From an uncultured virus (IMG/VR IMGVR_UViG_3300030019_000024) (lineage: Duplodnaviria; Heunggongvirae; Uroviricota; Caudoviricetes), in the IMG/VR virus record IMGVR_UViG_3300030019_000024: DNA of 20,000 bases; one strand, 5' to 3'. Of this stretch, positions 61-18,620 are shown one piece after another. The stretch's first letter is position 1. Each line of letters begins with the position of its first letter. Made by a program: the position numbers and the translations under genes. The notes beneath the pieces are model-generated. The model saw only the letters and a program-made list of their open reading frames with translations. It was not told the origin of the DNA and ran no database searches.

Positions 61-1259
61 TATGTTTGTATCTTTTCTTTTAATTTTACTAATAATAATC
101 TTCTTTTTAGAAATATTAATGTTTCTATTATAGAATTTAGTATATATTCTTTTCTGTTATTATAACTCCACATATAGTTGTTTCCACCACCTAAAGTTTT
201 AAATTCATTGTGTGTTTTTGAATATTCTTTTATTAATAAATTAATATCCAATCCTTGTGATAAGAAAATTTGATATATTTCTAAAATATCTTTCTTATGA
301 TAACCATCAACCTTATATACAAATTCATTATACAATGATATTTCTTTAAAAATGATAGTAGAATTACTATCATTTAGTAATCCAACTTCTACAAGTAATT
401 TAAAATAAGATAAAAATTCACTATAATAACCACGTAAGTTATGCAAACCCCTTATCATAAACGTAATATGTGATTTTTTATTTTTTACTATATTTATGTA
501 ATTTATAATATCTGAATCGTAAAATTTTTTGCGAACATCCAAATATTGTGATGGTGTAATAGTATCAATCACATAATCAAATAACATAGTATATTCAGAA
601 CATAAACTATAATTATCAAGTTTTATTAATAACTTTATTATCTGTGACTTAGTTAATGTTTTAATTATAAGTAAACTAAAAAATTCAATTAAATTTCTAT
701 CTGAATGATAATATAAATTTGAGTTAACTGATAATAATGAACTTAATAATTCATATAATCTTATCTGATTGTTTTTAATTGTTACTTTATCCCTTGGGTT
801 TATAATATTATCAGTTAAATATCTATCTATTAATTTCAATGAATTAATTGTAGACTTTTTCGAAATATTATAATAAAGCAAAAGTGCTAAATTTCTTAAT
901 TCACCAAGTTTTTCTACCCTTTTGTAATAATCATAAAATGAATTACCTCTATCATATAGTTTTAATATTTCATAATTGTATTTTATAATTCCTTTATACT
1001 TAGTATAATCAACTATCGGTTTTATACTAAAATATGAATCTTCTATATTTATATGCTTATCAAAAATATATTTAAATACAGTATCATCTTTTTCTAATAT
1101 AGAATCTATCCCTCTTTGATATCTATCTTGCGTAAATTTAGTAATATCTTGGGATTCTAATATTTCATCTATTAAATCAATATCAGTTGTTCTACCAATA
1201 CTTCCTAATAATAAATAAGGGTATTCTTTAAGTTCTTCTACTGCTTTATATTTGTACAT
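60..1259 (-). CDS. hypothetical protein, 399 aa
   Basis: Long ORF preceded by an AACTTTT-N14-TATTAT motif; no recognisable domain; basic C-terminus. Confidence 0.8.
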   Translation of the reverse strand: MYKYKAVEELKEYPYLLLGSIGRTTDIDLIDEILESQDITKFTQDRYQRGIDSILEKDDTVFKYIFDKHINIEDSYFSIKPIVDYTKYKGIIKYNYEILKLYDRGNSFYDYYKRVEKLGELRNLALLLYYNISKKSTINSLKLIDRYLTDNIINPRDKVTIKNNQIRLYELLSSLLSVNSNLYYHSDRNLIEFFSLLIIKTLTKSQIIKLLIKLDNYSLCSEYTMLFDYVIDTITPSQYLDVRKKFYDSDIINYINIVKNKKSHITFMIRGLHNLRGYYSEFLSYFKLLVEVGLLNDSNSTIIFKEISLYNEFVYKVDGYHKKDILEIYQIFLSQGLDINLLIKEYSKTHNEFKTLGGGNNYMWSYNNRKEYILNSIIETLIFLKRRLLLVKLKEKIQT

Positions 1260-1283
1260 AAAAAAAGATTATTTAATTCTACT

Positions 1284-1310
1284 ATAATATACAAATATAC
1301 TATAAAAGTT
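1284..1310 (-). promoter_or_regulatory. putative phage promoter AACTTTT-N14-TATTAT
   Basis: One of four copies with identical 14-nt spacing. Confidence 0.55.
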
Positions 1311-1343
1311 TTAAATAACCTTTCTATTTTATTAAAATTAATC

Positions 1344-1448
1344 TTATTTAACGATAATTAATAATGTACAAGTTGGACATATATAATATACACCATCACC
1401 CGTTTGTATTAAAGTCATTTCAATTTGACAATTTGGACATGTTTTCAT
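1344..1448 (-). CDS. 34-aa zinc-ribbon microprotein (MKTCPNCQIEMTLIQTGDGVYYICPTCTLLIIVK)
   Basis: Manually translated ATG..TAA ORF with two CPxC motifs; absent from the ORF track. Confidence 0.7.
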   Translation of the reverse strand: MKTCPNCQIEMTLIQTGDGVYYICPTCTLLIIVK

Positions 1449-1466
1449 TTCGTTAAATATATTTTG

Positions 1467-1540
1467 TGATCTGGAAGGGATTCAAACCCTTGACATTTTC
1501 ATTAGAAGTGAAATGCTCTATTCAACTGAGCTACCAAACC
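1467..1540 (-). tRNA. tRNA-Arg(UCU)
   Basis: Cloverleaf; anticodon arm TTTCA-CTTCTAA-TGAAA; T-loop TTTGAAT. Confidence 0.9.
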
Positions 1541-1547
1541 ATTTTTG

Positions 1548-1618
1548 TTGTCCAACAAGGATTCGAACCTTGACACCAAGAACCAAAGACTTGTGTGCTA
1601 CCATTACACCATCGGACA
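1548..1618 (-). tRNA. tRNA-Gln(UUG)
   Basis: TGTCCGA/TTGGACA acceptor; loop CTTTGGT; GGTTCGAATCC. Confidence 0.9.
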
Positions 1619-1640
1619 ATTTAATGTTGTTACTATTATA

Positions 1641-1667
1641 TATATATTATTCTTTTGGTCAAAAGTT
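1641..1667 (-). promoter_or_regulatory. putative phage promoter AACTTTT-N14-TATATA upstream of tRNA-Gln/Arg
   Basis: Same motif and spacing as the copies at 1284, 4753 and 8411. Confidence 0.5.
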
Positions 1668-1676
1668 TAATAAATA

Positions 1677-1725
1677 GTAAAAATAGTTTGTTCTTTTCTA
1701 TTTAGAACAAAAAAGAACAAACTAT
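1677..1725 (-). terminator. hairpin / possible intrinsic terminator after the Gly tRNAs
   Basis: Inverted repeat ATAGTTTGTTCTTTT...AAAAGAACAAACTAT followed by TTTT on the minus strand. Confidence 0.55.
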
Positions 1726-1729
1726 AAAG

Positions 1730-1815
1730 AGCAGAAAAAGGGATTCGAACCTTCGGTGTGATATTATCTTTCCAGCTTGGAAGGCTGGCGAAATCGACCA
1801 CTATGCGACTTCTGC
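1730..1815 (-). tRNA. tRNA-Gly(UCC) with long variable region
   Basis: CCAGC-CTTCCAA-GCTGG; about 17-nt variable region; U73. Confidence 0.8.
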
Positions 1816-1834
1816 ATATAACATTTACATGTTG

Positions 1835-1906
1835 AGCAGATAACGGTAATCGAAACCGCATCCTCGGTATGGTAAACCGATGCACTAACCATTGTGCTAT
1901 ATCTGC
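1835..1906 (-). tRNA. tRNA-Gly(ACC)
   Basis: TCGGT-TTACCAT-ACCGA; GCAGATA/TATCTGC acceptor; U73. Confidence 0.88.
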
Positions 1907-1921
1907 ATATAATATTTAAAG

Positions 1922-1993
1922 AGCAGGTGAACAGAATCGAACTGTCATCCTGAGTTTGGAAAACTCACGCACTAACCATTGTGCTACACCTGC
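1922..1993 (-). tRNA. tRNA-Gly(UCC)
   Basis: TGAGT-TTTCCAA-ACTCA; GCAGGTG/CACCTGC acceptor. Confidence 0.92.
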
Positions 1994-2109
1994 GGTATTT
2001 TACGTCCTGGAAAGGACGGGTTCTACTGTTTTCCTTCATCCTGCAAAATCATTTATAAATCATACTTATAAACATAATTGCAATACTTTAAAATTATTAC
2101 TTTATATAA

Positions 2110-2853
2110 TTAAACTTTAATCCATTTTCTTATTGTATTATCACAAACACCATATTTTCTACCTGTTCCACAATATCCTAATATTTCAACATCTTTAATT
2201 AATTGACTATGTTGGGGTCTATTTTCATTAGATTTTTCTAATCTGAATATTCCTTCACATTTTTTACATTTCATTGACCGTTTATCTATTTCTTTACCAC
2301 AAGAACAAAAATTATTAGACTTTACTTTTGAATTATTTTTTGTTTTTTTTGTCACTATTGTTTTTAATTTTATTTTTGATTCTATTTTATTTATTTTATT
2401 TTTAGAACCAAAATTATCTGTTTGACTATGACAATTTGGACAAAGAACTTTTAAATTATTTAATTCATGATTTCTATTATCACCATCAATATGATGTAAA
2501 TGTAAAGATATATCTTTATCACACCATTTAATTATACCACAATTTTCACATTTATTTTCTTTAAGACCATTTTTTATTAATTTAATTCTTAATAAACCAA
2601 TATTTGTATATGTGGATTTTTTTATTAAAATATCATCTAACGACATTATTTTACCAGGGTATTTATATTTTTCCCCTTTGTTCCATCCTTGACCTATAAA
2701 GTGTGAAATATCAATACTATATTTATTAATTAAATTATGTACTCTTTTATAATTTCCACCTACTGGTCTTATATTTAACATTCTACAAACATCTGCAATC
2801 GAGAAAGATTCTTTAAATATTTTTTTTATTTCTTCTATATCAATAATTTTCAT
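2110..2853 (-). CDS. HNH endonuclease (free-standing homing endonuclease-like) inside the tRNA array
   Basis: CENC...LHLHHIDGDNRNHELNNLKVLCPNCH HNH motif; C-terminal Cys cluster and HTH-like tail. Confidence 0.9.
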   Translation of the reverse strand: MKIIDIEEIKKIFKESFSIADVCRMLNIRPVGGNYKRVHNLINKYSIDISHFIGQGWNKGEKYKYPGKIMSLDDILIKKSTYTNIGLLRIKLIKNGLKENKCENCGIIKWCDKDISLHLHHIDGDNRNHELNNLKVLCPNCHSQTDNFGSKNKINKIESKIKLKTIVTKKTKNNSKVKSNNFCSCGKEIDKRSMKCKKCEGIFRLEKSNENRPQHSQLIKDVEILGYCGTGRKYGVCDNTIRKWIKV

Positions 2854-2922
2854 ATTTTTTTTTAATTATATATTATATAATTAATAGTCAAAAAAAAATA
2901 TACATTTTGCGTTTATGCTTTG

Positions 2923-3003
2923 TACTTGTAGACGGGATCGAACCGTCACGCTTTTCAGCATATGTTCCTAAAACATAGGTGTCTACCATTCCACCATACA
3001 AGC
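2923..3003 (-). tRNA. tRNA-Leu(UAG)
   Basis: TATGT-TTTAGGA-ACATA; class II variable arm. Confidence 0.92.
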
Positions 3004-3008
3004 ATATG

Positions 3009-3095
3009 TACTGATGATGGGAGTCGAACCCACACGCACCTTACGATGCAACAGATTTTAAGTCTGTCATGTATTTCCAGTTTCATCACATCAGC
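3009..3095 (-). tRNA. tRNA-Leu(UAA)
   Basis: ACAGA-CTTAAAA-TCTGT; long variable arm. Confidence 0.92.
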
Positions 3096-3104
3096 ATATT
3101 ATAG

Positions 3105-3187
3105 TAACTTAGATGGGATTCGAACCCATACGTCTTTCGACACTACATTTTGAGTGTAGCATGTTCTACCAATTTCATCACTAAGCC
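3105..3187 (-). tRNA. tRNA-Leu(CAA)
   Basis: CTACA-CTCAAAA-TGTAG; long variable arm. Confidence 0.92.
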
Positions 3188-3193
3188 ATTTTG

Positions 3194-3256
3194 TCGAAGG
3201 GTGAAGATTCGAACTTCAACAATAGCTAAATGCACCGCTATTTCCACATACCTCCG
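3194..3256 (-). ncRNA. D-arm-less tRNA-like element or pseudo-tRNA
   Basis: Acceptor CGGAGG/CCTTCG-A, T-arm TGAAG-TTCGAAT-CTTCA, AATAGC/GCTATT stem with 10-nt loop, no D-stem. Confidence 0.55.
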
Positions 3257-3262
3257 TTATTG

Positions 3263-3349
3263 TACCTAAAGTGGGACTCGAACCCACACACCTACTTTAT
3301 TCGGTAATAGCCTCTTAAACTATCGTGTCTACCATTCCACCATTTAGGT
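3263..3349 (-). tRNA. tRNA-Leu(AAG)
   Basis: ATAGT-TTAAGAG-GCTAT; D-arm nearly identical to Leu(UAG); long variable arm; A73. Confidence 0.85.
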
Positions 3350-3359
3350 ATTTATATTG

Positions 3360-3442
3360 TTGCGAAAATGGGATTCGAACCCATGAAATCTTACGATAAC
3401 ACCTTATGAGAGTGTCCTATTTGACCGCTTTAGTACTTCGCA
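3360..3442 (-). tRNA. tRNA(CAU), Met or Ile2, with long variable arm
   Basis: ACACT-CTCATAA-GGTGT; variable hairpin ATC-GTAA-GAT. Confidence 0.8.
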
Positions 3443-3451
3443 ATATATTTG

Positions 3452-3524
3452 TTCCCCAACCAGGGTTCGAACCTGGATTACTGCATCCAAAGTGCTGTGT
3501 GGTTAGCCATTACACTATTGGGGA
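3452..3524 (-). tRNA. tRNA-Gln(UUG)
   Basis: TCCCCAA/TTGGGGA acceptor; loop CTTTGGA. Confidence 0.88.
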
Positions 3525-3534
3525 ATATTTAAAG

Positions 3535-3618
3535 AGCCTTCTGTCAGATTCGAACTGACGTGTCTTATTCAGATCTTGATTACAAGTCAAGCGCAATCGA
3601 CCACTATGCGAAGAAGGC
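3535..3618 (-). tRNA. tRNA-Thr(UGU) with long variable arm
   Basis: CTTGA-CTTGTAA-TCAAG; variable hairpin TCT-GAATA-AGA. Confidence 0.88.
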
Positions 3619-3630
3619 ATTTTTATTTAA

Positions 3631-3708
3631 TGGTGGAGAATATCGGGTTCGAACCGATGACCCCTTGCTTGCAAAGCAAGTGCTCTAAGCCAACTGAGCT
3701 AATCCCCC
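3631..3708 (-). tRNA. tRNA-Ala(UGC), CCA encoded
   Basis: CTTGC-TTTGCAA-GCAAG; G3-U70; ends ACCA. Confidence 0.95.
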
Positions 3709-3728
3709 ATTATTTACTTTTTAAAGTG

Positions 3729-3800
3729 TGGAGATGTGGGTAATTGAAACCCAATTTATTGGTTGCAAACCAATTGTAATAGCCGTTATACGACACCCCC
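3729..3800 (-). tRNA. tRNA-Ala(UGC)
   Basis: ATTGG-TTTGCAA-CCAAT; G3-U70. Confidence 0.88.
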
Positions 3801-3847
3801 TTGTTGAATTTTTGTTTTTTTATAGAAAAAATTCTAAAATCTACTTG

Positions 3848-3922
3848 GGTGAAAGGCGGGTCTCGAACCCGTGACCTTCTGAACCACAATCAGACGCTCT
3901 AACCAACTGAGCTACAATCACC
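3848..3922 (-). tRNA. tRNA-His(GUG)
   Basis: TCTGA-TTGTGGT-TCAGA; G-1 and C73. Confidence 0.9.
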
Positions 3923-3949
3923 ATATATACTTATTTTTCAATAAGTTTG

Positions 3950-4023
3950 TCGGGATGAAAGGACTCAAACCTTCAATAACCTTGTGACCAAAACAAGTAA
4001 CCTCATCAATGGATCGCATCCCG
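3950..4023 (-). tRNA. tRNA-Pro(UGG), divergent D-arm and U37
   Basis: CGGGATG/CATCCCG-A acceptor; CTTGT-TTTGGTC-ACAAG. Confidence 0.7.
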
Positions 4024-4031
4024 ATATTTAG

Positions 4032-4104
4032 TAGAGTAGACAGGGCTCGAACCTGCGACCTCAACATCCCAAATGTTGTAATCTTCCAACTGATATACTA
4101 CTCT
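4032..4104 (-). tRNA. tRNA-Pro(UGG)
   Basis: CAACA-TTTGGGA-TGTTG; atypical A1-U72. Confidence 0.85.
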
Positions 4105-4109
4105 ATGTG

Positions 4110-4199
4110 GGTGAATAACGAGGCTCGAACTCGCAGGGACCTTTTTTAAAGGTTCAGGGGCCACAACCCTATCGGATACCATTACCGTTTATATTCACC
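4110..4199 (-). tRNA. tRNA-His(GUG) with long variable arm
   Basis: TAGGG-TTGTGGC-CCCTG; G-1/C73; variable hairpin ACCTT-TAAA-AAGGT. Confidence 0.82.
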
Positions 4200-4226
4200 A
4201 TATTAACTTATTTTACAATAAGTTTG

Positions 4227-4299
4227 TCGGGATGACAGGGCTCAAACCTGCGACTTCTTGCTCCCAAAGCAAGCACTCTTTCCACTGAGCTACATCCCG
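4227..4299 (-). tRNA. tRNA-Pro(UGG)
   Basis: CGGGATG/CATCCCG-A; CTTGC-TTTGGGA-GCAAG. Confidence 0.9.
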
Positions 4300-4338
4300 T
4301 TATATTTGTCCAAAATGTCAAAGAACTAATTTTTTTTG

Positions 4339-4410
4339 TGTTTCCAAAGGGATTCAAACCCTTATCGTCTGGTCCGTAGCCAAGTGTTCTATTCGTTGAA
4401 CTATGGAAAC
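4339..4410 (-). tRNA. tRNA-Arg(ACG)
   Basis: GTTTCCA/TGGAAAC acceptor; loop CTACGGA. Confidence 0.88.
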
Positions 4411-4416
4411 ATATTT

Positions 4417-4458
4417 AAAAAAGAAAAACCCAATTCAAGTTTCGTTGAATTGGGTTTT
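4417..4458 (-). terminator. intrinsic terminator (attenuator) between the leader ORF and the first tRNA
   Basis: AAAACCCAATTCAA-CGAAAC-TTGAATTGGGTTTT followed by TCTTTTTT, ending 6 nt before tRNA-Arg(ACG). Confidence 0.85.
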
Positions 4459-4482
4459 GCATATTTCGTTTTATAATCTATC

Positions 4483-4599
4483 TTACATAATAATTATGTT
4501 TTTAGTTATACGATTACACGTACCCAATCCAGTGCCACGACCTCCTTGAGGTAGTTGTGTTGGTTGTAAATGCGCCATATGTAATCTAACTGTTGTCAT
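4483..4599 (-). CDS. putative attenuator leader peptide, 38 aa (MTTVRLHMAHLQPTQLPQGGRGTGLGTCNRITKNIIIM)
   Basis: ATG preceded by an A-rich initiation region; codon content mirrors the downstream tRNA set; contains a segment complementary to the terminator 5' arm. Confidence 0.75.
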   Translation of the reverse strand: MTTVRLHMAHLQPTQLPQGGRGTGLGTCNRITKNIIIM

Positions 4600-4680
4600 A
4601 ATATTAATTTTTACTTGTTTTGTTATTTTTATATATTTAATCAGAAAAGTCGTTTTTTTCCATTTTTTCTGATTGTGATA

Positions 4681-4712
4681 CAAAGGTAATACAAATTTTC
4701 CGAATTACCAAA
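4681..4712 (-). promoter_or_regulatory. Bacteroidota primary-sigma-type promoter TTTG-N20-TACCTTTG
   Basis: Matches the -33/-7 consensus TTTG-N19-21-TAnnTTTG. Confidence 0.75.
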
Positions 4713-4752
4713 TGTTTTTCAATTTATTTTCATTTATTTTAAAAATATACTT

Positions 4753-4779
4753 ATTATAGTATGTTTAATTTAAAAAGTT
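4753..4779 (-). promoter_or_regulatory. putative phage promoter AACTTTT-N14-TATAAT
   Basis: Repeated motif with fixed spacing. Confidence 0.6.
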
Positions 4780-4842
4780 TGATTTATTATTGAATAAATA
4801 CGTTTTATTTTTGAAATAGACTTTTTATTTCTATTTTCTTTA

Positions 4843-4874
4843 CAAAGATAATACAAATAATTGGATTATACAAA
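4843..4874 (-). promoter_or_regulatory. Bacteroidota primary-sigma-type promoter TTTG-N20-TATCTTTG
   Basis: Matches the -33/-7 consensus. Confidence 0.7.
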
Positions 4875-4881
4875 TATTATA

Positions 4882-5661
4882 TCAATCAATACCTAAATTA
4901 AATTTTCTTGCCCAGAAGCATCCTTTATTTAATGCTACTTTTACATCAAACCCATCTAAAATTTTTGGGTGGTGTTTATTTTCTGACCAATCTATATAAC
5001 GTAGGTTATTATTTACGATTGTGTCTTTAAAATCGGAATTCATCAATACTGTTTGGAAATACATTTCATCGGGTATTTGTGAAAATTTAAAAAAATCATA
5101 AAAATATTCTTTTTTTGAAAAATCTTCATATAAAAATAATAGACAGTCATGTGTTATCGAAAACCATTGTGATCCATCATAATATTTTATATTGATATTA
5201 AAAATCCTTTTATCCCCTAAAAATTTCCAAGATTCATCAATATCCCATGATTTAGAAATTCTACTAAACTTTGGTTTATTTGGTAATAAATCATGGTATT
5301 CTATATAATTTTTTCCATTATTTTTTATGAAAAAATCATCTATTACATTTCTACTTACGATAGGTAGACATGAATTACTTAATAGGTGTATATAATCAGC
5401 ATTAAATCCACTTTTTAAATATTCGTCAAATAATTCAAAGGTAGCTTCAATCATACTGAATCCACCCCATTTTACTTGAACACGTTTTTTTATAAATATT
5501 ACATTATCTGAAAATTCAGATAAAGCACTTTTAAACACATCAATATATGATTTAGCATCTATATGTATAAAAATTATATCATTTTTATTAGTTAGTGTTG
5601 AAATCAACTGTCTTAATTGATTTGGTTTATCATGTGCTAAAATTAAGTAAGCAAATTTCAT
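4882..5661 (-). CDS. GT14 / Core-2/I-branching family glycosyltransferase
   Basis: AYLILAH, FIHID, V.WGGFS, GSQWF, PDE..FQT, NLRYIDW, ARKF motifs. Confidence 0.9.
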   Translation of the reverse strand: MKFAYLILAHDKPNQLRQLISTLTNKNDIIFIHIDAKSYIDVFKSALSEFSDNVIFIKKRVQVKWGGFSMIEATFELFDEYLKSGFNADYIHLLSNSCLPIVSRNVIDDFFIKNNGKNYIEYHDLLPNKPKFSRISKSWDIDESWKFLGDKRIFNINIKYYDGSQWFSITHDCLLFLYEDFSKKEYFYDFFKFSQIPDEMYFQTVLMNSDFKDTIVNNNLRYIDWSENKHHPKILDGFDVKVALNKGCFWARKFNLGID

Positions 5662-5679: not shown

Positions 5680-6453
5680 TTACATCCCTAAATCAAATTT
5701 TCTCCCCCAAAAACAGCAAGTATTTAATGCTATTTTTAAATCATCATCATTCAATGTTTTAGGATGTTTATTTTTTTCAGACCAATCTATATAACGTAAA
5801 TTATTATTTACTATTGTGTTTTTAAATTCCGTATTTAATAGTATTGTTTGAAAATACATTTCATCTGGTATTTGTATATACTTAAATTTTTCATTATATA
5901 CACCATTATTATATATATTATATAAATATTCTAAACACTCATTTGTTATAGAAAACCACTGTGAACCCTTATAATATTTAATATTGTTATCATATTTTTC
6001 ATTTATTCCATCATATATAATTTCACTATCTTTTAAAATCCATTTATATAAATATCTATAAGAAAAATTATCATATATATTTACCAATTCATAATTTAGA
6101 TAATTTTTATTATTGTTACAGAAGAATTTTTTAATTTCATCATTTGGTTTTATCGGTAAGCATACACCACTTATTAGATGAATATAATTAGCATTAAATT
6201 TACTATTTAGATAACATTCAAAAAGTTTTATAGTTGCTTCTACCATACTGAATGTACCCCAATGTATATCAATTCTATCATCAAGAAAAATAACATCATT
6301 TTTATATTTTTCTAATGCATTATGAAAAATATTAATATCACATTTTTTATCAAGGTGTATAAAAATTTTAGTATCTTCATTTAAAATTGAAGATACTAAA
6401 TAATTTAATTGATTAGGTTTTTCATGTGCTAATATTAAATATGCAAATTTCAT
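5680..6453 (-). CDS. GT14 / Core-2/I-branching family glycosyltransferase (tandem paralog)
   Basis: Same motif set; clearly paralogous to 4882..5661. Confidence 0.9.
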   Translation of the reverse strand: MKFAYLILAHEKPNQLNYLVSSILNEDTKIFIHLDKKCDINIFHNALEKYKNDVIFLDDRIDIHWGTFSMVEATIKLFECYLNSKFNANYIHLISGVCLPIKPNDEIKKFFCNNNKNYLNYELVNIYDNFSYRYLYKWILKDSEIIYDGINEKYDNNIKYYKGSQWFSITNECLEYLYNIYNNGVYNEKFKYIQIPDEMYFQTILLNTEFKNTIVNNNLRYIDWSEKNKHPKTLNDDDLKIALNTCCFWGRKFDLGM

Positions 6454-14414: not shown

Positions 14415-14443
14415 AAAAGGGGAAATTATTTTCCCCTTTTTTT
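14415..14443. terminator. bidirectional intrinsic terminator overlapping the stop of the convergent gene
   Basis: AAAAGGGGAAA...TTTCCCCTTTT. Confidence 0.8.
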
Positions 14444-15238
14444 ATAATTAAATTCTTCTTCTGTTTTTATATATTTTTGGGTGTTTATACACTTTTTTGT
14501 AATACATAAATTATTAATTGATGATATTTCTTCTATTTTTATATTATTATCATATCCATATCTAATAGATATTTTATGATCAATTGTTGGATAGTTTGAA
14601 CTTCTTGAATCAATTATGAAATTATTTTTTATATATTCACCATCATAGTAATCATATCCATCCCAACTATTTAATAATTCTTTTTTTATTTTAAGTGTTA
14701 ACCGATTAACTATTCTTTTGTATAATTTAAAATCTTCAAATTTTTCATCTGATATAATTAATCCTTTCTTAATTTTAGTATTTCTTGTTTTTATAATATT
14801 ATTTTTAATTATATCTTTATTTTGAAATGGATTTTCACAACCATATTTTATTAAATTAGTTTTTGTTCTTTTTTCTAATAAATCTATTGAATTTTCTATA
14901 ACATAATCCGAAATTTTTTTCTTTACTTCATCCAAGAAAGAAACATTATCTACACCATAATTTTCGTTATTTGTTATTTTAGTTTTATGAAATCTACATC
15001 CACTACATGCATAAAAATTTTTATTTTTTAAACATGTATTATAACTTTTATATTCTTTCATTGAAGTTTTGTGACAAATATCACATTCTACTTCTACCAT
15101 TACATGACTATTTATATTTAAATCTTCTATTTTTAAAATGAATATATCATTCATTTTGGTGTACTTATATCCTAAATCCATATAAGTTTTTTTATTATAT
15201 GAATTCCACTTCATTGCTACCACTTTAGTTATTACCAT
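14426..15238 (-). CDS. putative HNH-type homing endonuclease with Zn-finger and YG..N repeats
   Basis: CDIC and CSGC; TNNENYGVDN and TNLIKYGCEN repeats; C-terminal TIDHKIS...NLCIT...N; lone opposite-strand gene. Confidence 0.65.
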   Translation of the reverse strand: MVITKVVAMKWNSYNKKTYMDLGYKYTKMNDIFILKIEDLNINSHVMVEVECDICHKTSMKEYKSYNTCLKNKNFYACSGCRFHKTKITNNENYGVDNVSFLDEVKKKISDYVIENSIDLLEKRTKTNLIKYGCENPFQNKDIIKNNIIKTRNTKIKKGLIISDEKFEDFKLYKRIVNRLTLKIKKELLNSWDGYDYYDGEYIKNNFIIDSRSSNYPTIDHKISIRYGYDNNIKIEEISSINNLCITKKCINTQKYIKTEEEFNYKKRGK

Positions 15239-15311: not shown

Positions 15312-18300
15312 ATGAATAATAAAACAATTAGTGATAAATATATAAAACTTTCCCAACGAGAACATGTATTAACAAGACCTGATACATATATTGGTTCAGT
15401 GAATAAAGAATTCAAATCAATTTATGTTGCTACAAATTACAGTGAAAATATTAAAGATACAAAAATGATTTACGAAAGTTATGAATACACACCAGCTTTC
15501 ATAAAGATATTCGATGAAGCAATAACAAATGCTTCTGATCATGCAATTAGAACAGGCGAAGTAACATATATTAAAGTAAATATAATAAATGATATAATAT
15601 CAGTTGAAAATGATGGTCCTGGTGTACCTGTTATAATGCATGATAAGGAACATATTTATATACCCGAACTTGTGTTTGGACATTTATTATCAGGTGAAAA
15701 TTTTAATGATATGGAACAGAGATACTTAGGCGGTAGGAACGGAATTGGAATTAAATGTACTAATATTTATTCCAAATCCTTTTTATTAGAAACATCAGAT
15801 GGTATAAAATCATACAAACAAGAATTCACTGATAACATGTCAGTTGTTAATACACCTAAAGTAAAAAAATGTAAACAATCTTATACTAAAGTTACTTATA
15901 AACCTGATTTTGAAAAGTTTTCAATGACTGAAATTGATGATGTAACGTTATCAATATTAGTAAAACGTATAATTGATATAGCTGCATATAATCCAACTGT
16001 AAAAGTATATTTCAATGAACAAATTGTTCCAATTAAAACATTTAAAGATTATATTAAATTATTTACATCTGAAAATGATGAAATTTTTTATGAAAAGGTA
16101 AATGAAAATTGGGAAGTTGGTGTAATTAAATCACCAATAGATGCATTCACACAAGTTAGCATGGTTAATGGTATTTCAACTATTTTAGGTGGTACACATG
16201 TTAATTTTGTTACTAATAATTTAGTTGTACCATTGAAAGAACAATTAGAAAGAGGTGTTAAAGGATTGAATATTAAAGTAAATGATATTAAAGGAAGGGT
16301 ACTATTATTTGTAAATAGTAGATTACCTAATCCAACATTTGATACACAAACAAAAGAAAACTTAACACTTCGTTTGACATCTCAATTAACTAAAGATGTT
16401 AAGATTAGTGATAGCTTAATAAAGAAATTAAGTAAATCTGATATTTTTACTGATTTGGTTGAACTTTCTTTAATGAAAGAAAAATTAGATGCACAAAAAG
16501 AATTAAATAAACAAGTAGGGAAAAGAATACGTGTAGAAAAATTATTTGATGCAAACAATGCTGGAAAATTAGGTAGATCATCAGGATGCTATTTATTCAT
16601 CACAGAAGGTGATTCTGCAAGAAATTTTGCAGTTGCTGGATTTTCAATTACTGGTCGTGATAATTATGGTTGTTTTCCTATTCGTGGTAAATCATTAAAT
16701 GTTAGAGGGGTAGCTTTACAGAAAATTAAAGACAATGATGAATTAAAAAATATCATTCAGATTTTAGGATTAGAATTTGGTAAAAAATATAAATCTACTT
16801 CTGAACTTAGATACGGTAAAGTAGTACTTACATCGGATTCAGATACTGATGGTTATCATATTAAGGGATTACTTATTAATTTCTTTGAAATATTTTGGCC
16901 AGAATTATTAAAACTTGATTTTATTTATGAATTTGTAACACCAATTATTATTGCAACAAACGGTAAAAGAAAAAAATTCTTTTACAAACAAAATGAATAT
17001 GATAAATGGTGCAGTGAAATAGGTAACTTATCTGCATATAATATTAAATACTATAAAGGTCTTGGTACACTTGGTCCACAGTTAGGTAAAGAATTATTTA
17101 AAGATTTAGATAAACATTTGATTCCATTTCATTATTCAAATCCAGAAAGAACAAAAGATTTAATTGATTTAGCATTTAATAAGAAAAGACCTGATGATAG
17201 AAAAGAATGGTTGAGTAATTATGTTTTAAATGCATCTTTTGATAAATTTGCACAAAAGACAACATTTGAATCGTTTATGGACAATGAATTTATAGAATAT
17301 AGCATGGAAGATAATGTTCGTTCTATTCCTTCTATTGTTGATGGGTTTAAACCAAGTCAAAGAAAAATTTTATATACTTTGATGAAGTTAAATAAAACAG
17401 GTGAAATGAATGTTGGTGAATTATTTGGTTATGTAAAATCAACCGCAGAATATCATCATGGTCCACAATCACTTGAACAAGGTATTATTTCAATGGCACA
17501 AGAATTTATAGGTTCAAATAATTTATCAATTTTAGAACCACTTGGATCATTTGGTACCAGAATCAGTGGTGGAAAGGATAGTTCAGCAGCAAGATATATT
17601 TATACAAAATTAAGAGATATCACAAAAGATATATTTATGAAAGAAGATGGTGATATTTTGAACTATTTAGATGTAGATGGTAAGAAAGTAGAACCAGATT
17701 ATTACTTACCTATTATACCACAAGTATTATTAAATGGTGTTGAAGGTATTGGTACTGGTTGGTCTTCAACCATACCTAAATTTAAATGTGAAGATTTAAT
17801 AGAATATATTGATAATAAAATATCAGGTAAAAAGAAAAATATTGAACTTTTACCATTTTATGAAAATTTTACAGGTACTTCGTATTATGATAAAGAAAAT
17901 AATAATTTCATGACAAGGGGTACTATTAAAAAAATAAATGATTCTACTTTAAATATTACTGAATTACCTATTAATGTATGGAATGATAATTATTATCTTA
18001 CATTAGAAGAAATGATTGATGATAAAATTATTAAAAATTTCCAAAAAAACTGTACTGATGAAAAAGTAAATATTAAAATAAAAATACAAAATGAAATTTT
18101 AAGTAGTTTTTCAGATGATGAATTATATACTAAGTTTGATTTGGATTCTAAAATAAATATGTCTAACATGCATTTATTTAATGCTGATGGTAAAATTAAA
18201 AAGTATAATGACCAATATGAAATAATTGATGAATATTATTCTATTAGATTAGAAGGTTATCAGAAACGAAAAGATAGTTTGTTATCAAAATTTTATAATA

Positions 18301-18620
18301 AAAAAATATGGTATGATAATACCATAAAGTTTATAAAGTTAGTTTTGAAAGATGAAATAAAAATTAACAATGTTGGTATAGATAAAATTATTCAATCATT
18401 ACAAAAAAATGATATAGCAGAAATTGATGGTGGATATAATTATTTATTAAATATTGCAATTTATAAATTAACAAGAGAAGAATTAGTGAAATTACGTGAT
18501 AATTATAGAGAATTAAAAGAAAATATTAAAGAATTAGAAGAAGATACACCCGAAAAAATGTGGCATAATGATTTAATTAAATTAAGAGCGTCATTAAAGA
18601 AATATAGAAACAATAAATAA
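15312..18620 (+). CDS. top2: single-chain type IIA DNA topoisomerase (ATPase + TOPRIM + breakage-reunion fused)
   Basis: EHVLTRPDTYIGS, GGRNGIGIK, TEGDSA, PIRGK, DSDTDG, YYKGLGT, RSIPSIVDGFKPSQRK, YHHG, catalytic AARY. Confidence 0.96.
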   Translation: MNNKTISDKYIKLSQREHVLTRPDTYIGSVNKEFKSIYVATNYSENIKDTKMIYESYEYTPAFIKIFDEAITNASDHAIRTGEVTYIKVNIINDIISVENDGPGVPVIMHDKEHIYIPELVFGHLLSGENFNDMEQRYLGGRNGIGIKCTNIYSKSFLLETSDGIKSYKQEFTDNMSVVNTPKVKKCKQSYTKVTYKPDFEKFSMTEIDDVTLSILVKRIIDIAAYNPTVKVYFNEQIVPIKTFKDYIKLFTSENDEIFYEKVNENWEVGVIKSPIDAFTQVSMVNGISTILGGTHVNFVTNNLVVPLKEQLERGVKGLNIKVNDIKGRVLLFVNSRLPNPTFDTQTKENLTLRLTSQLTKDVKISDSLIKKLSKSDIFTDLVELSLMKEKLDAQKELNKQVGKRIRVEKLFDANNAGKLGRSSGCYLFITEGDSARNFAVAGFSITGRDNYGCFPIRGKSLNVRGVALQKIKDNDELKNIIQILGLEFGKKYKSTSELRYGKVVLTSDSDTDGYHIKGLLINFFEIFWPELLKLDFIYEFVTPIIIATNGKRKKFFYKQNEYDKWCSEIGNLSAYNIKYYKGLGTLGPQLGKELFKDLDKHLIPFHYSNPERTKDLIDLAFNKKRPDDRKEWLSNYVLNASFDKFAQKTTFESFMDNEFIEYSMEDNVRSIPSIVDGFKPSQRKILYTLMKLNKTGEMNVGELFGYVKSTAEYHHGPQSLEQGIISMAQEFIGSNNLSILEPLGSFGTRISGGKDSSAARYIYTKLRDITKDIFMKEDGDILNYLDVDGKKVEPDYYLPIIPQVLLNGVEGIGTGWSSTIPKFKCEDLIEYIDNKISGKKKNIELLPFYENFTGTSYYDKENNNFMTRGTIKKINDSTLNITELPINVWNDNYYLTLEEMIDDKIIKNFQKNCTDEKVNIKIKIQNEILSSFSDDELYTKFDLDSKINMSNMHLFNADGKIKKYNDQYEIIDEYYSIRLEGYQKRKDSLLSKFYNKKIWYDNTIKFIKLVLKDEIKINNVGIDKIIQSLQKNDIAEIDGGYNYLLNIAIYKLTREELVKLRDNYRELKENIKELEEDTPEKMWHNDLIKLRASLKKYRNNK

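Follow-up and report, generated by a model that had tools for sequence, protein, structure and literature searches.

The window, a 20,000-nucleotide (nt) stretch of the uncultured-virus record IMGVR_UViG_3300030019_000024, carries a 38-codon open reading frame (ORF) and a strong terminator directly in front of an array of 20 transfer RNA (tRNA) genes. The codons of this leader ORF match the tRNA genes that follow it, and leaders with different sequences match their own arrays in the same way in other phage genomes. Judged from these sequences, the element is probably a ribosome-mediated transcription attenuator in front of a phage tRNA operon. The earlier note on this DNA had proposed that the leader is a panel sensor, in which stalling on any depleted tRNA permits read-through into the array. 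That reading is supported by the co-variation of leaders with arrays, by antiterminator pairing and by the placement of codons, which is evidence of a comparative and structural kind. Leader, terminator, array and associated motifs all lie on the minus strand and comprise the following.

4843..4874, minus: upstream promoter-like motif TTTG-N-TAtcTTTG, the first of a tandem pair (consensus scan)
4681..4712, minus: proximal promoter-like motif TTTG-N20-TAccTTTG, with a predicted transcript start a few bases downstream
4624..4672, minus: 5' hairpin (AATCAGAAAA...TTTTCTGATT), present in the minimum-free-energy (MFE) structure, and AAATATATAAAAAT box; a promoter-like cassette
4483..4599, minus: leader ORF, 38 codons and a stop, reading MTTVRLHMAHLQPTQLPQGGRGTGLGTCNRITKNIIIM
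4540..4596, minus: proposed sensor zone, codons 2-20, with all nine array amino acids and one Val
4521..4532, minus: region 2, predicted antiterminator 5' strand CTGGATTGGGTA, codons 23-27 (duplex energy and nascent-RNA MFE)
4445..4458, minus: region 3, terminator 5' arm AAAACCCAATTCAA
4412..4438, minus: region 4, terminator 3' arm (4438-4425) and T-rich tail, which abuts the tRNA
4338..4410, minus: tRNA-Arg(ACG), the first gene of the array
4306..4326, minus: motif GTTCTTTGACATTTTGGACAA after the first tRNA (one match against none expected)
1466..4410, minus: array of 20 tRNA genes (ARAGORN), with an HNH endonuclease ORF inside

Codon content of the leader and the array it precedes

The array reads Arg, Pro (three genes), His (two), Ala (two), Thr, Gln (two), Met/CAT, Leu (four), Gly (three) and Arg. 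ARAGORN at default settings found 19 tRNAs with 14 distinct anticodons, serving nine amino acids; the 20th gene, tRNA-Pro(TGG) at 4023-3949 (minus strand), appeared only at a relaxed threshold. The 20 tRNAs and 14 anticodons counted in the earlier note were thus recovered, with exactly the anticodons it had named. A strong terminator had also been placed between the leader stop and the first tRNA, and one is present: a 14-bp stem with a 6-nt loop (4458-4425), followed by TCTTTTTTAA, has a predicted energy of -16.2 kcal/mol, and the T-run extends to 4412. The gene for tRNA-Arg(ACG) begins 1-2 nt past this tail, and consensus scans, the only method applied here, found no promoter-like site between terminator and tRNA in the interval 4482-4411. 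Upstream of the leader, motifs of the TTTG...TAnnTTTG type, a promoter consensus that we take to be that of Bacteroidota, have 6 matches in the window against 2.42 expected, and 6 of 200 shuffled sequences reach that number.

The list of leader codons 1-27 in the earlier note proved exact, and its tallies stood up to a recount. Codons for the nine-amino-acid set make up 26 of these 27 positions, with all nine amino acids present, compared with 3 of 11 for codons 28-38. The leader holds the exact Watson-Crick codon for 11 of the 14 anticodons and a wobble codon (CAT, GCG) for two more, so that 13 of 14 have a readable codon, CTT for Leu-AAG being the one missing. The match is densest at the start of the ORF: 18 of 19 residues at codons 2-20 are matched, against 10 of 18 in the rest, and codons 2-20 hold a readable codon for 12 of the 14 anticodons when read off the codon list.

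The probability of such a match, which the earlier note had proposed to calculate, was computed against the codon usage of the contig. The chance that a codon falls in the amino-acid set is 0.333, giving P = 2e-11 for at least 25 of 26 codons, and at least 13 of 14 anticodons were covered in 11 of 200,000 simulated draws. Because a GC-rich non-coding stretch could mimic the match, we scored all six-frame windows of the contig. Among 19,477 stop-free windows of 27 codons, the leader alone reaches 26 of 27 together with 13 of 14, and it is again alone among the 1,422 windows with a GC (guanine plus cytosine) fraction of at least 0.38.

An Rfam search (cmscan) of 1200-5000 returned only tRNA above threshold and nothing on the leader body at E<=10; two matches far below threshold touch the terminator only. 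The same search gave no match to the leader families (Trp_leader, His_leader, Leu_leader, Thr_leader and others), the T-box or any riboswitch. A decayed tRNA or other known RNA within the leader was considered and dropped, there being no Rfam match there. The leader peptide has no match to a Pfam or PHROG family.

Leaders before tRNA arrays in other phages

Compared by topoisomerase II, LR756501.1 (735 kb; 49.8% identity) and LR756504.1 (636 kb; 40.4%), both of them uncultured huge phages, are the nearest records. A DNA search of both returned matches that span only query positions 17-100, covering promoter and hairpin; these cassette matches lie upstream of four tRNA arrays in LR756501.1 and one in LR756504.1, and elsewhere. 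All tRNA-bearing regions of the two genomes were taken, and the sequence upstream of each block was read. The layout that recurs is a promoter cassette, a short ATG-initiated ORF, a GC hairpin with a T-run, and then tRNAs, and each leader ORF uses the amino acids of its own tRNA block. Leaders from these genomes and from the wider viral sample include the following.

LR756501.1, MNFRIINMIQEQMQQIQNLIGGTISY: before Met, Gln, Ile and Glu tRNAs
LR756501.1, MKNMVRKYNDYCINDKLKMLIG (...YNDYCIND...): before Asp, Tyr, Ile, Asn and Cys tRNAs
LR756501.1, MNNILHINLLNSLCLLGIKLIG, 22 codons with all six Leu codons: before five tRNA-Leu
LR756501.1, MLQTSKHSKHFSSSSKWF...: before Trp, His, Phe, Lys and Ser tRNAs
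LR756501.1, ...TPAPAVAFRRGTGTGTGTCVPAG...: before Arg, Thr, Val, Ala, Gly and Pro tRNAs
LR756504.1 (eight units), for example MRTILIIKKKKRD...: before four tRNA-Lys
Leader ...IIKKKKRD...: before four tRNA-Lys
Wider viral sample, MKTIFVQQQQQQT...: before two tRNA-Gln

Ranking arrays within a single genome holds codon usage constant. In this comparison the leader ranked its own array first in 5 of 5 cases in LR756501.1 and in 8 of 8 in LR756504.1, sets that include three units added under a relaxed distance rule.

The arrangement was also sought beyond these two genomes. A scan of viral contigs for the generic terminator tail of these units gave at least 121 loci. Among the 121 viral matches listed, 33 have a same-strand tRNA no more than 200 nt downstream of the tail, nearly all with a short ORF; the same tail in bacterial and archaeal genomes, used as a control, has a tRNA within that distance in 2 of 121 matches. 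Units were then defined by a rule blind to ORF composition. It called for a perfect-stem hairpin with a T-run, for a tRNA on the same strand at most 250 nt away, and for the earliest ATG ORF of at least 10 codons whose end lies 110 nt or less ahead of the stem. Of the 45 units so selected, one had no ORF and one was dropped (the second hairpin of the window, where the ORF overlaps tRNA-Gly genes). The 43 retained units fell into 25 non-redundant clusters at 50% peptide identity, and arrays in the wider sample were taken from 1.5-kb flanks.

We reassigned arrays among leaders 200,000 times, and no permutation reached the observed value on any measure. The fraction of anticodons with a readable codon in their own leader was 0.941 (permuted, 0.571), the amino-acid fraction was 0.374 (permuted, 0.212) and the codon fraction was 0.322 (permuted, 0.168). 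After correction for set size, the z score for the leader's own array was 2.73 compared with 0.03 for permuted arrays, again with 0 of 200,000 permutations reaching it. The own array was ranked first by 12 of the 25 leaders and among the top three by 18; some of the low ranks belong to loci cut to one or two tRNAs. The earlier note had asked whether leaders in related phages co-vary with their own tRNA sets, and they do, both within the two genomes and across the 25 units.

One leader family keeps its reading frame, which counts in favour of the attenuator: its nine distinct DNA versions are all 35 or 34 codons long while their residues swap freely. The sole cultured-phage match of the best-sampled family is a Vibrio phage, at 16% coverage. 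For the leader in the window, the stretch 4380-4900 had no blastn match among 50,697 phage records, an exact 20-mer of the leader had no match in viral contigs, and a protein search of LR756501.1 and LR756504.1 with the leader peptide returned nothing. A back-translated pattern found six loci in metagenome contigs, namely two identical copies and four unrelated sequences. Four DNA sequencing runs contained no variant letters at 4307-4591, which includes the leader, and three small insertions at 4279-4283, in tRNA-Pro. In the same samples, 4627-4667 and 4679-4730 recur on other contigs with 4-5 differences.

The operons headed by such leaders in LR756501.1 and LR756504.1 also hold synthetase genes (class I W/Y; class II core with an HGTP anticodon domain; class II D/K/N) and a gene for ribosomal protein L7/L12. 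These genes sit near tRNAs of matching kind (L017 2435-3148, L023 2216-3376, L028 749-1885, L015 2960-3331). Endonuclease-family ORFs (PD-(D/E)XK, DUF559) also break up the arrays of the relatives.

The hairpin and AATATATAAAA cassette behaves like a phage-specific promoter and is found before both tRNA leaders and ordinary protein genes (L007, L009, L010, L012). In front of ordinary protein genes it comes without leader or terminator in all 4 loci examined. Its sharing with structural-looking genes hints that the tRNAs are expressed alongside those genes.

Two further features of the tRNA complement of LR756501.1 were observed. Two tandem tRNAs with a CTA anticodon (L020 2086-2239), amber suppressors to which ARAGORN gives the label Pyl, lack a leader ORF and are accompanied by a promoter-like TATATTTG box. 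Elsewhere in that genome (L014 4815-5300, L016, L017), several tRNA-like genes missed by ARAGORN seem to be interrupted by insertions of about 50 nt, which have a recurring ...ACAGCAAACAAAAC... core and may be introns in the anticodon region.

Antiterminator pairing, proposed mechanism and alternatives

Region 2 of the leader is predicted to pair with the 5' arm of the terminator. The duplex between 4532-4521 and 4458-4445 has an energy of -14.7 kcal/mol, compared with -7.1 +/- 1.6 for dinucleotide shuffles, none of 300 being as good (z -4.68). This pairing overlaps the terminator stem, and the two structures are mutually exclusive. Across the 25 units, antiterminator complementarity was significant relative to shuffles at p<=0.05 in 19 and at p<=0.01 in 12, with a mean z of -3.0. 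Late codons of the leader, for Gly, Thr and Leu, fall within the antiterminator strand, and the earlier caveat that RNA structure may constrain the late Gly codons holds. Matched residues are concentrated ahead of that strand: in the pooled units 215 of 463 residues upstream of region 2 are matched versus 63 of 262 downstream, and the matched fraction is higher upstream in 20 of the 25.

The effect of ribosome position was modelled on nascent RNA that ends at the terminator loop, in which the 30 nt under the ribosome were masked before folding. With the A site at codons 1-18, region 2 and the 5' arm form 10 bp; this falls to 9 bp at codon 19 and 6 bp at codon 20, is absent at codons 21-31 and returns at codons 32-39.

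These features would fit the following sequence of events. Transcription would start upstream of 4673 and run through the 38-codon leader, in which each of the nine amino acids of the 20 tRNA genes is sampled within the first ~20 codons. During fast reading, a ribosome on codons 20-31 would cover CTGGATTGGGTA; the terminator at 4458-4425 would form, and transcription would stop at the T-run before tRNA-Arg. If a charged cognate tRNA were scarce, the ribosome would stall within codons 2-20 and leave 4532-4521 free to capture 4458-4445; the terminator would then be blocked and RNA polymerase would enter the array. The phage tRNAs so made would speed leader translation and shut the gate. The product would be the sensed molecule, which makes the circuit a negative-feedback loop on decoding capacity, and since nine amino acids share one leader it would act as an OR gate, any single shortage being enough. 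We infer leader translation, stalling, the kinetic choice of pairing, the feedback and the cause of tRNA depletion. Cleavage by host anticodon nucleases is a plausible, speculative source of tRNA loss, and host shut-off or heavy translation late in infection would serve equally.

Several observations weigh against this mechanism. The equilibrium folds do not predict the choice between pairings, which would have to be kinetic: in the full-length RNA the terminator belongs to the MFE structure at 38 of 39 ribosome positions. Besides the terminator, the full-length MFE structure has a long leader hairpin that encloses region 2. The nascent antiterminator also forms without a ribosome and with a ribosome at codons 32-39, the stop included. 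Since the ribosome-free nascent fold favours the antiterminator, termination must rely on timing or on the long leader hairpin. The antiterminator is not significant in 6 of the 25 units, and three leaders place their own array only at rank 10, 14 or 19, these being very broad panels or a unit of two merged arrays. The window leader lacks CTT for Leu-AAG and has, at codon 4, a Val that no tRNA of the array serves; in addition, CGT (for anticodon ACG; codons 21 and 30) and TTG (for anticodon CAA; codon 25) occur only where a stalled ribosome covers region 2. No diverged homologue of this leader was found in the searches above, only the two identical copies, so there is no evidence from compensatory change for this particular element. 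The motif at 4326-4306 may be an internal promoter or a processing signal; if it is a promoter, 19 of the 20 tRNAs would be partly independent of the attenuator. In LR756501.1 this conserved motif, GTTCTTTGAC.T.TTG, lies between terminator and first tRNA, and GTTCTTTGAC.T.TTGRAA recurs 10-25 nt before tRNA genes, 3' of terminators (loci L014, L015, L019, L034).

Some of these points would suit a system in which leader and terminator act through translation and report general status (starvation, ribosome availability or late-infection timing), or in which stalling acts through RNA cleavage or stability. The folds alone do not predict termination on fast translation, and a promoter cassette held in common with structural-looking genes fits timing control. 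The synthetase and L7/L12 genes of the relatives' operons point the same way, and with synthetase genes in the same operons charging may matter besides tRNA amount. A readout of general status needs no array-specific codons, yet in both genomes every leader ranks its own array first (5 of 5 and 8 of 8), the leader-array match reaches the codon level, and the antiterminator is significant in 19 of 25 units. We therefore consider this explanation unlikely, while still giving it some weight.

Two other explanations were weighed. Promoter, ORF and terminator make up a complete transcription unit, as expected if the small ORF were an independent micropeptide gene and the array were transcribed separately, for example from 4326-4306; the conserved motif downstream of terminators and the RGTGxGTC stretch common to the window leader and the homologous LR756501.1 leader can be read in the same sense. 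That stretch, however, is the RNA strand that pairs with the terminator, and the peptides are otherwise unrelated between arrays, with a composition that follows the tRNAs. The lack of any Pfam or PHROG match, or of a peptide match in the two relatives, also argues against a micropeptide, as does the position of tRNA-Arg(ACG) hard against the terminator tail with no promoter-like site between. We regard a separate micropeptide gene as very improbable. Even less credence goes to the idea that the ORF arose by chance in a structured spacer of raised GC content, such as a decayed tRNA or another non-coding RNA, beside an ordinary terminator. In its favour, GC content is 40-48% in the ORF core and 10-27% around it, the predicted folding of the region is better than that of shuffled sequence (z = -4.4), and GC-rich codons favour Gly, Ala, Arg and Pro. 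Against this, the leader stands alone among the windows of similar GC content, no Rfam family besides tRNA scored above threshold and none lay on the leader body, and the same arrangement recurs with different sequence and array-specific content in 25 non-redundant units.

Beyond the attenuator of the window, we lean towards a broader reading in which phage tRNA operons carry a widespread homeostat of decoding capacity. Each leader would be a codon panel; one shortage would open the set and the phage tRNAs would close it. The window would hold a nine-amino-acid OR gate, and the huge-phage relatives would have amino-acid-specific modules that include cognate synthetase genes.

Genomic setting and comparison with known systems

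The window belongs to a virus contig of 41,387 bases and 25.7% GC, whose DNA is present in sequencing runs labelled peat metagenome. Because this contig has genes for a tail sheath (PHROG E 2e-80) and a tail tube, we assign it to a tailed myophage. Other genes encode a fused topoisomerase II, ankyrin-repeat proteins, peptidoglycan hydrolases and homing endonucleases; a eukaryotic giant virus, suggested by the fused topoisomerase II and the ankyrins, was ruled out by the tail sheath and tube matches. The topoisomerase II gene (15312-18620, plus strand) is a single 1,102-amino-acid fusion of subunits. Most of the isolate phages listed with annotation have the match split over separate genes for the large and medium subunits. 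A homing-endonuclease-like ORF (14426-15238, minus strand) adjoins it. Directly upstream of the leader promoter, 4882-5661 and 5680-6453 (minus strand) encode tandem Core-2/I-branching-type glycosyltransferase paralogues (Pfam Branch, E 7e-36 and 2e-29), a family unusual in phage. Searches for related loci gave no match with the neighbouring glycosyltransferase and one contig, without tRNAs, with topoisomerase II.

Inside the array, an HNH endonuclease ORF (2110-2853, minus strand; PHROG E 2e-46) splits the tRNA genes. Long extra arms, unusual for their isotypes, were seen in tRNA-Gly(TCC) (1729-1815, 87 nt), tRNA-Met/CAT (3359-3442, 84 nt), tRNA-Thr (3534-3618, 85 nt) and tRNA-His (4109-4198, 90 nt), all on the minus strand; the Rfam tRNA model missed the 90-nt His gene. 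The earlier note had cautioned that the last two tRNAs (Gln and Arg-UCU) may have their own promoter. That caution is warranted, as both are preceded by these two features.

1683..1725, minus: second hairpin, a 20-bp AT-rich stem and T-run, before the last two tRNAs and without a leader ORF
1662-1635, minus: promoter-like site before the last two tRNAs

Discussion of phage tRNA genes has mostly centred on codon usage, which they would supplement, or on the replacement of host tRNAs that defence nucleases destroy, and to our knowledge their regulation is largely unstudied. If the broader reading above is correct, phages would measure host tRNA loss, whether from host shut-off or from tRNA-cleaving defences, and answer in real time. 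With an attenuator of this kind before the array, decoding capacity would be sensed codon by codon and tRNAs dosed on demand, a closed-loop control of tRNA genes for which we found no described counterpart in the searchable literature. Textbook attenuation would extend to RNA-gene output, to phages and to Bacteroidota-type hosts, in which leader-peptide attenuators are, as far as we know, little known. The content of a leader would serve as a label predicting which tRNAs a phage treats as limiting, and such leaders could supply synthetic biology with compact, codon-specific sensors of tRNA availability.

Amino-acid operons provide the closest model. The trp, his, leu and pheA operons are controlled by attenuators, and those of thr and ilvGMEDA are multivalent. 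Like trp- and his-type attenuators, the element in the window has a short codon-enriched ORF, an intrinsic terminator and an alternative pairing over the terminator 5' arm, and the position of the ribosome would choose between pairings; like the thr and ilv leaders, it would sense more than a single amino acid. The window differs in that the output is tRNA genes rather than biosynthetic enzymes, in that the element is located in a phage, and in that nine amino acids are sampled once or a few times each instead of in runs of one or two. It also matches no Rfam leader family, and a clear 1:2 anti-antiterminator is not established.

Attenuation of genes for the decoding apparatus itself has precedents. 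In E. coli, the Phe-rich leader of the pheST attenuator controls an aminoacyl-tRNA synthetase operon. A His leader precedes hisS paralogues in bacilli according to the available part of a 2010 attenuator survey, which in that part describes leader peptides before synthetase genes and mentions none before tRNA genes (PMC2965389). The window element resembles these leaders in the class of genes that it would control, and leader-headed operons of the relatives do hold synthetase genes; it differs in that one leader serves many tRNA species and in that the operon, which consists of tRNAs and the HNH endonuclease, has no synthetase gene. A possible attenuator-like leader before the tRNA-Phe genes pheU/pheV of E. 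coli was considered and set aside; the text consulted describes monocistronic genes with 3-4 nt leaders.

Direct sensing of tRNA is known from the T-box riboswitch, which binds uncharged tRNA without translation and whose model covers a specifier loop and the conserved T-box sequence. As in the T-box, tRNA status would be sensed and a putative terminator/antiterminator switch precedes translation-related genes. In the window, by contrast, the proposed sensor is a translated ORF, and the Rfam search gave no T-box match.

Among uncultured phages, theta (HDV-like) ribozymes adjoin viral tRNA genes, as the accessible part of that report describes (PMC10879173). They share with the window element the placement of a cis-acting RNA beside phage tRNA genes; unlike it, they self-cleave and are tied, in that same part, to suppressor tRNAs and recoding (PMC10879173). 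Work on the replacement by phage tRNA arrays of host tRNAs lost to defence nucleases (PMC10264068, PMC11464382) gives a reason for tRNA shortage; in the sections available it concerns the tRNAs themselves, with no regulatory leader seen. In the full-text literature, with most subscription journals outside its scope, we found no leader-peptide control of tRNA genes in phages or bacteria. The class of mechanism is that of the textbook attenuators, whereas an output of tRNA genes is not textbook material.

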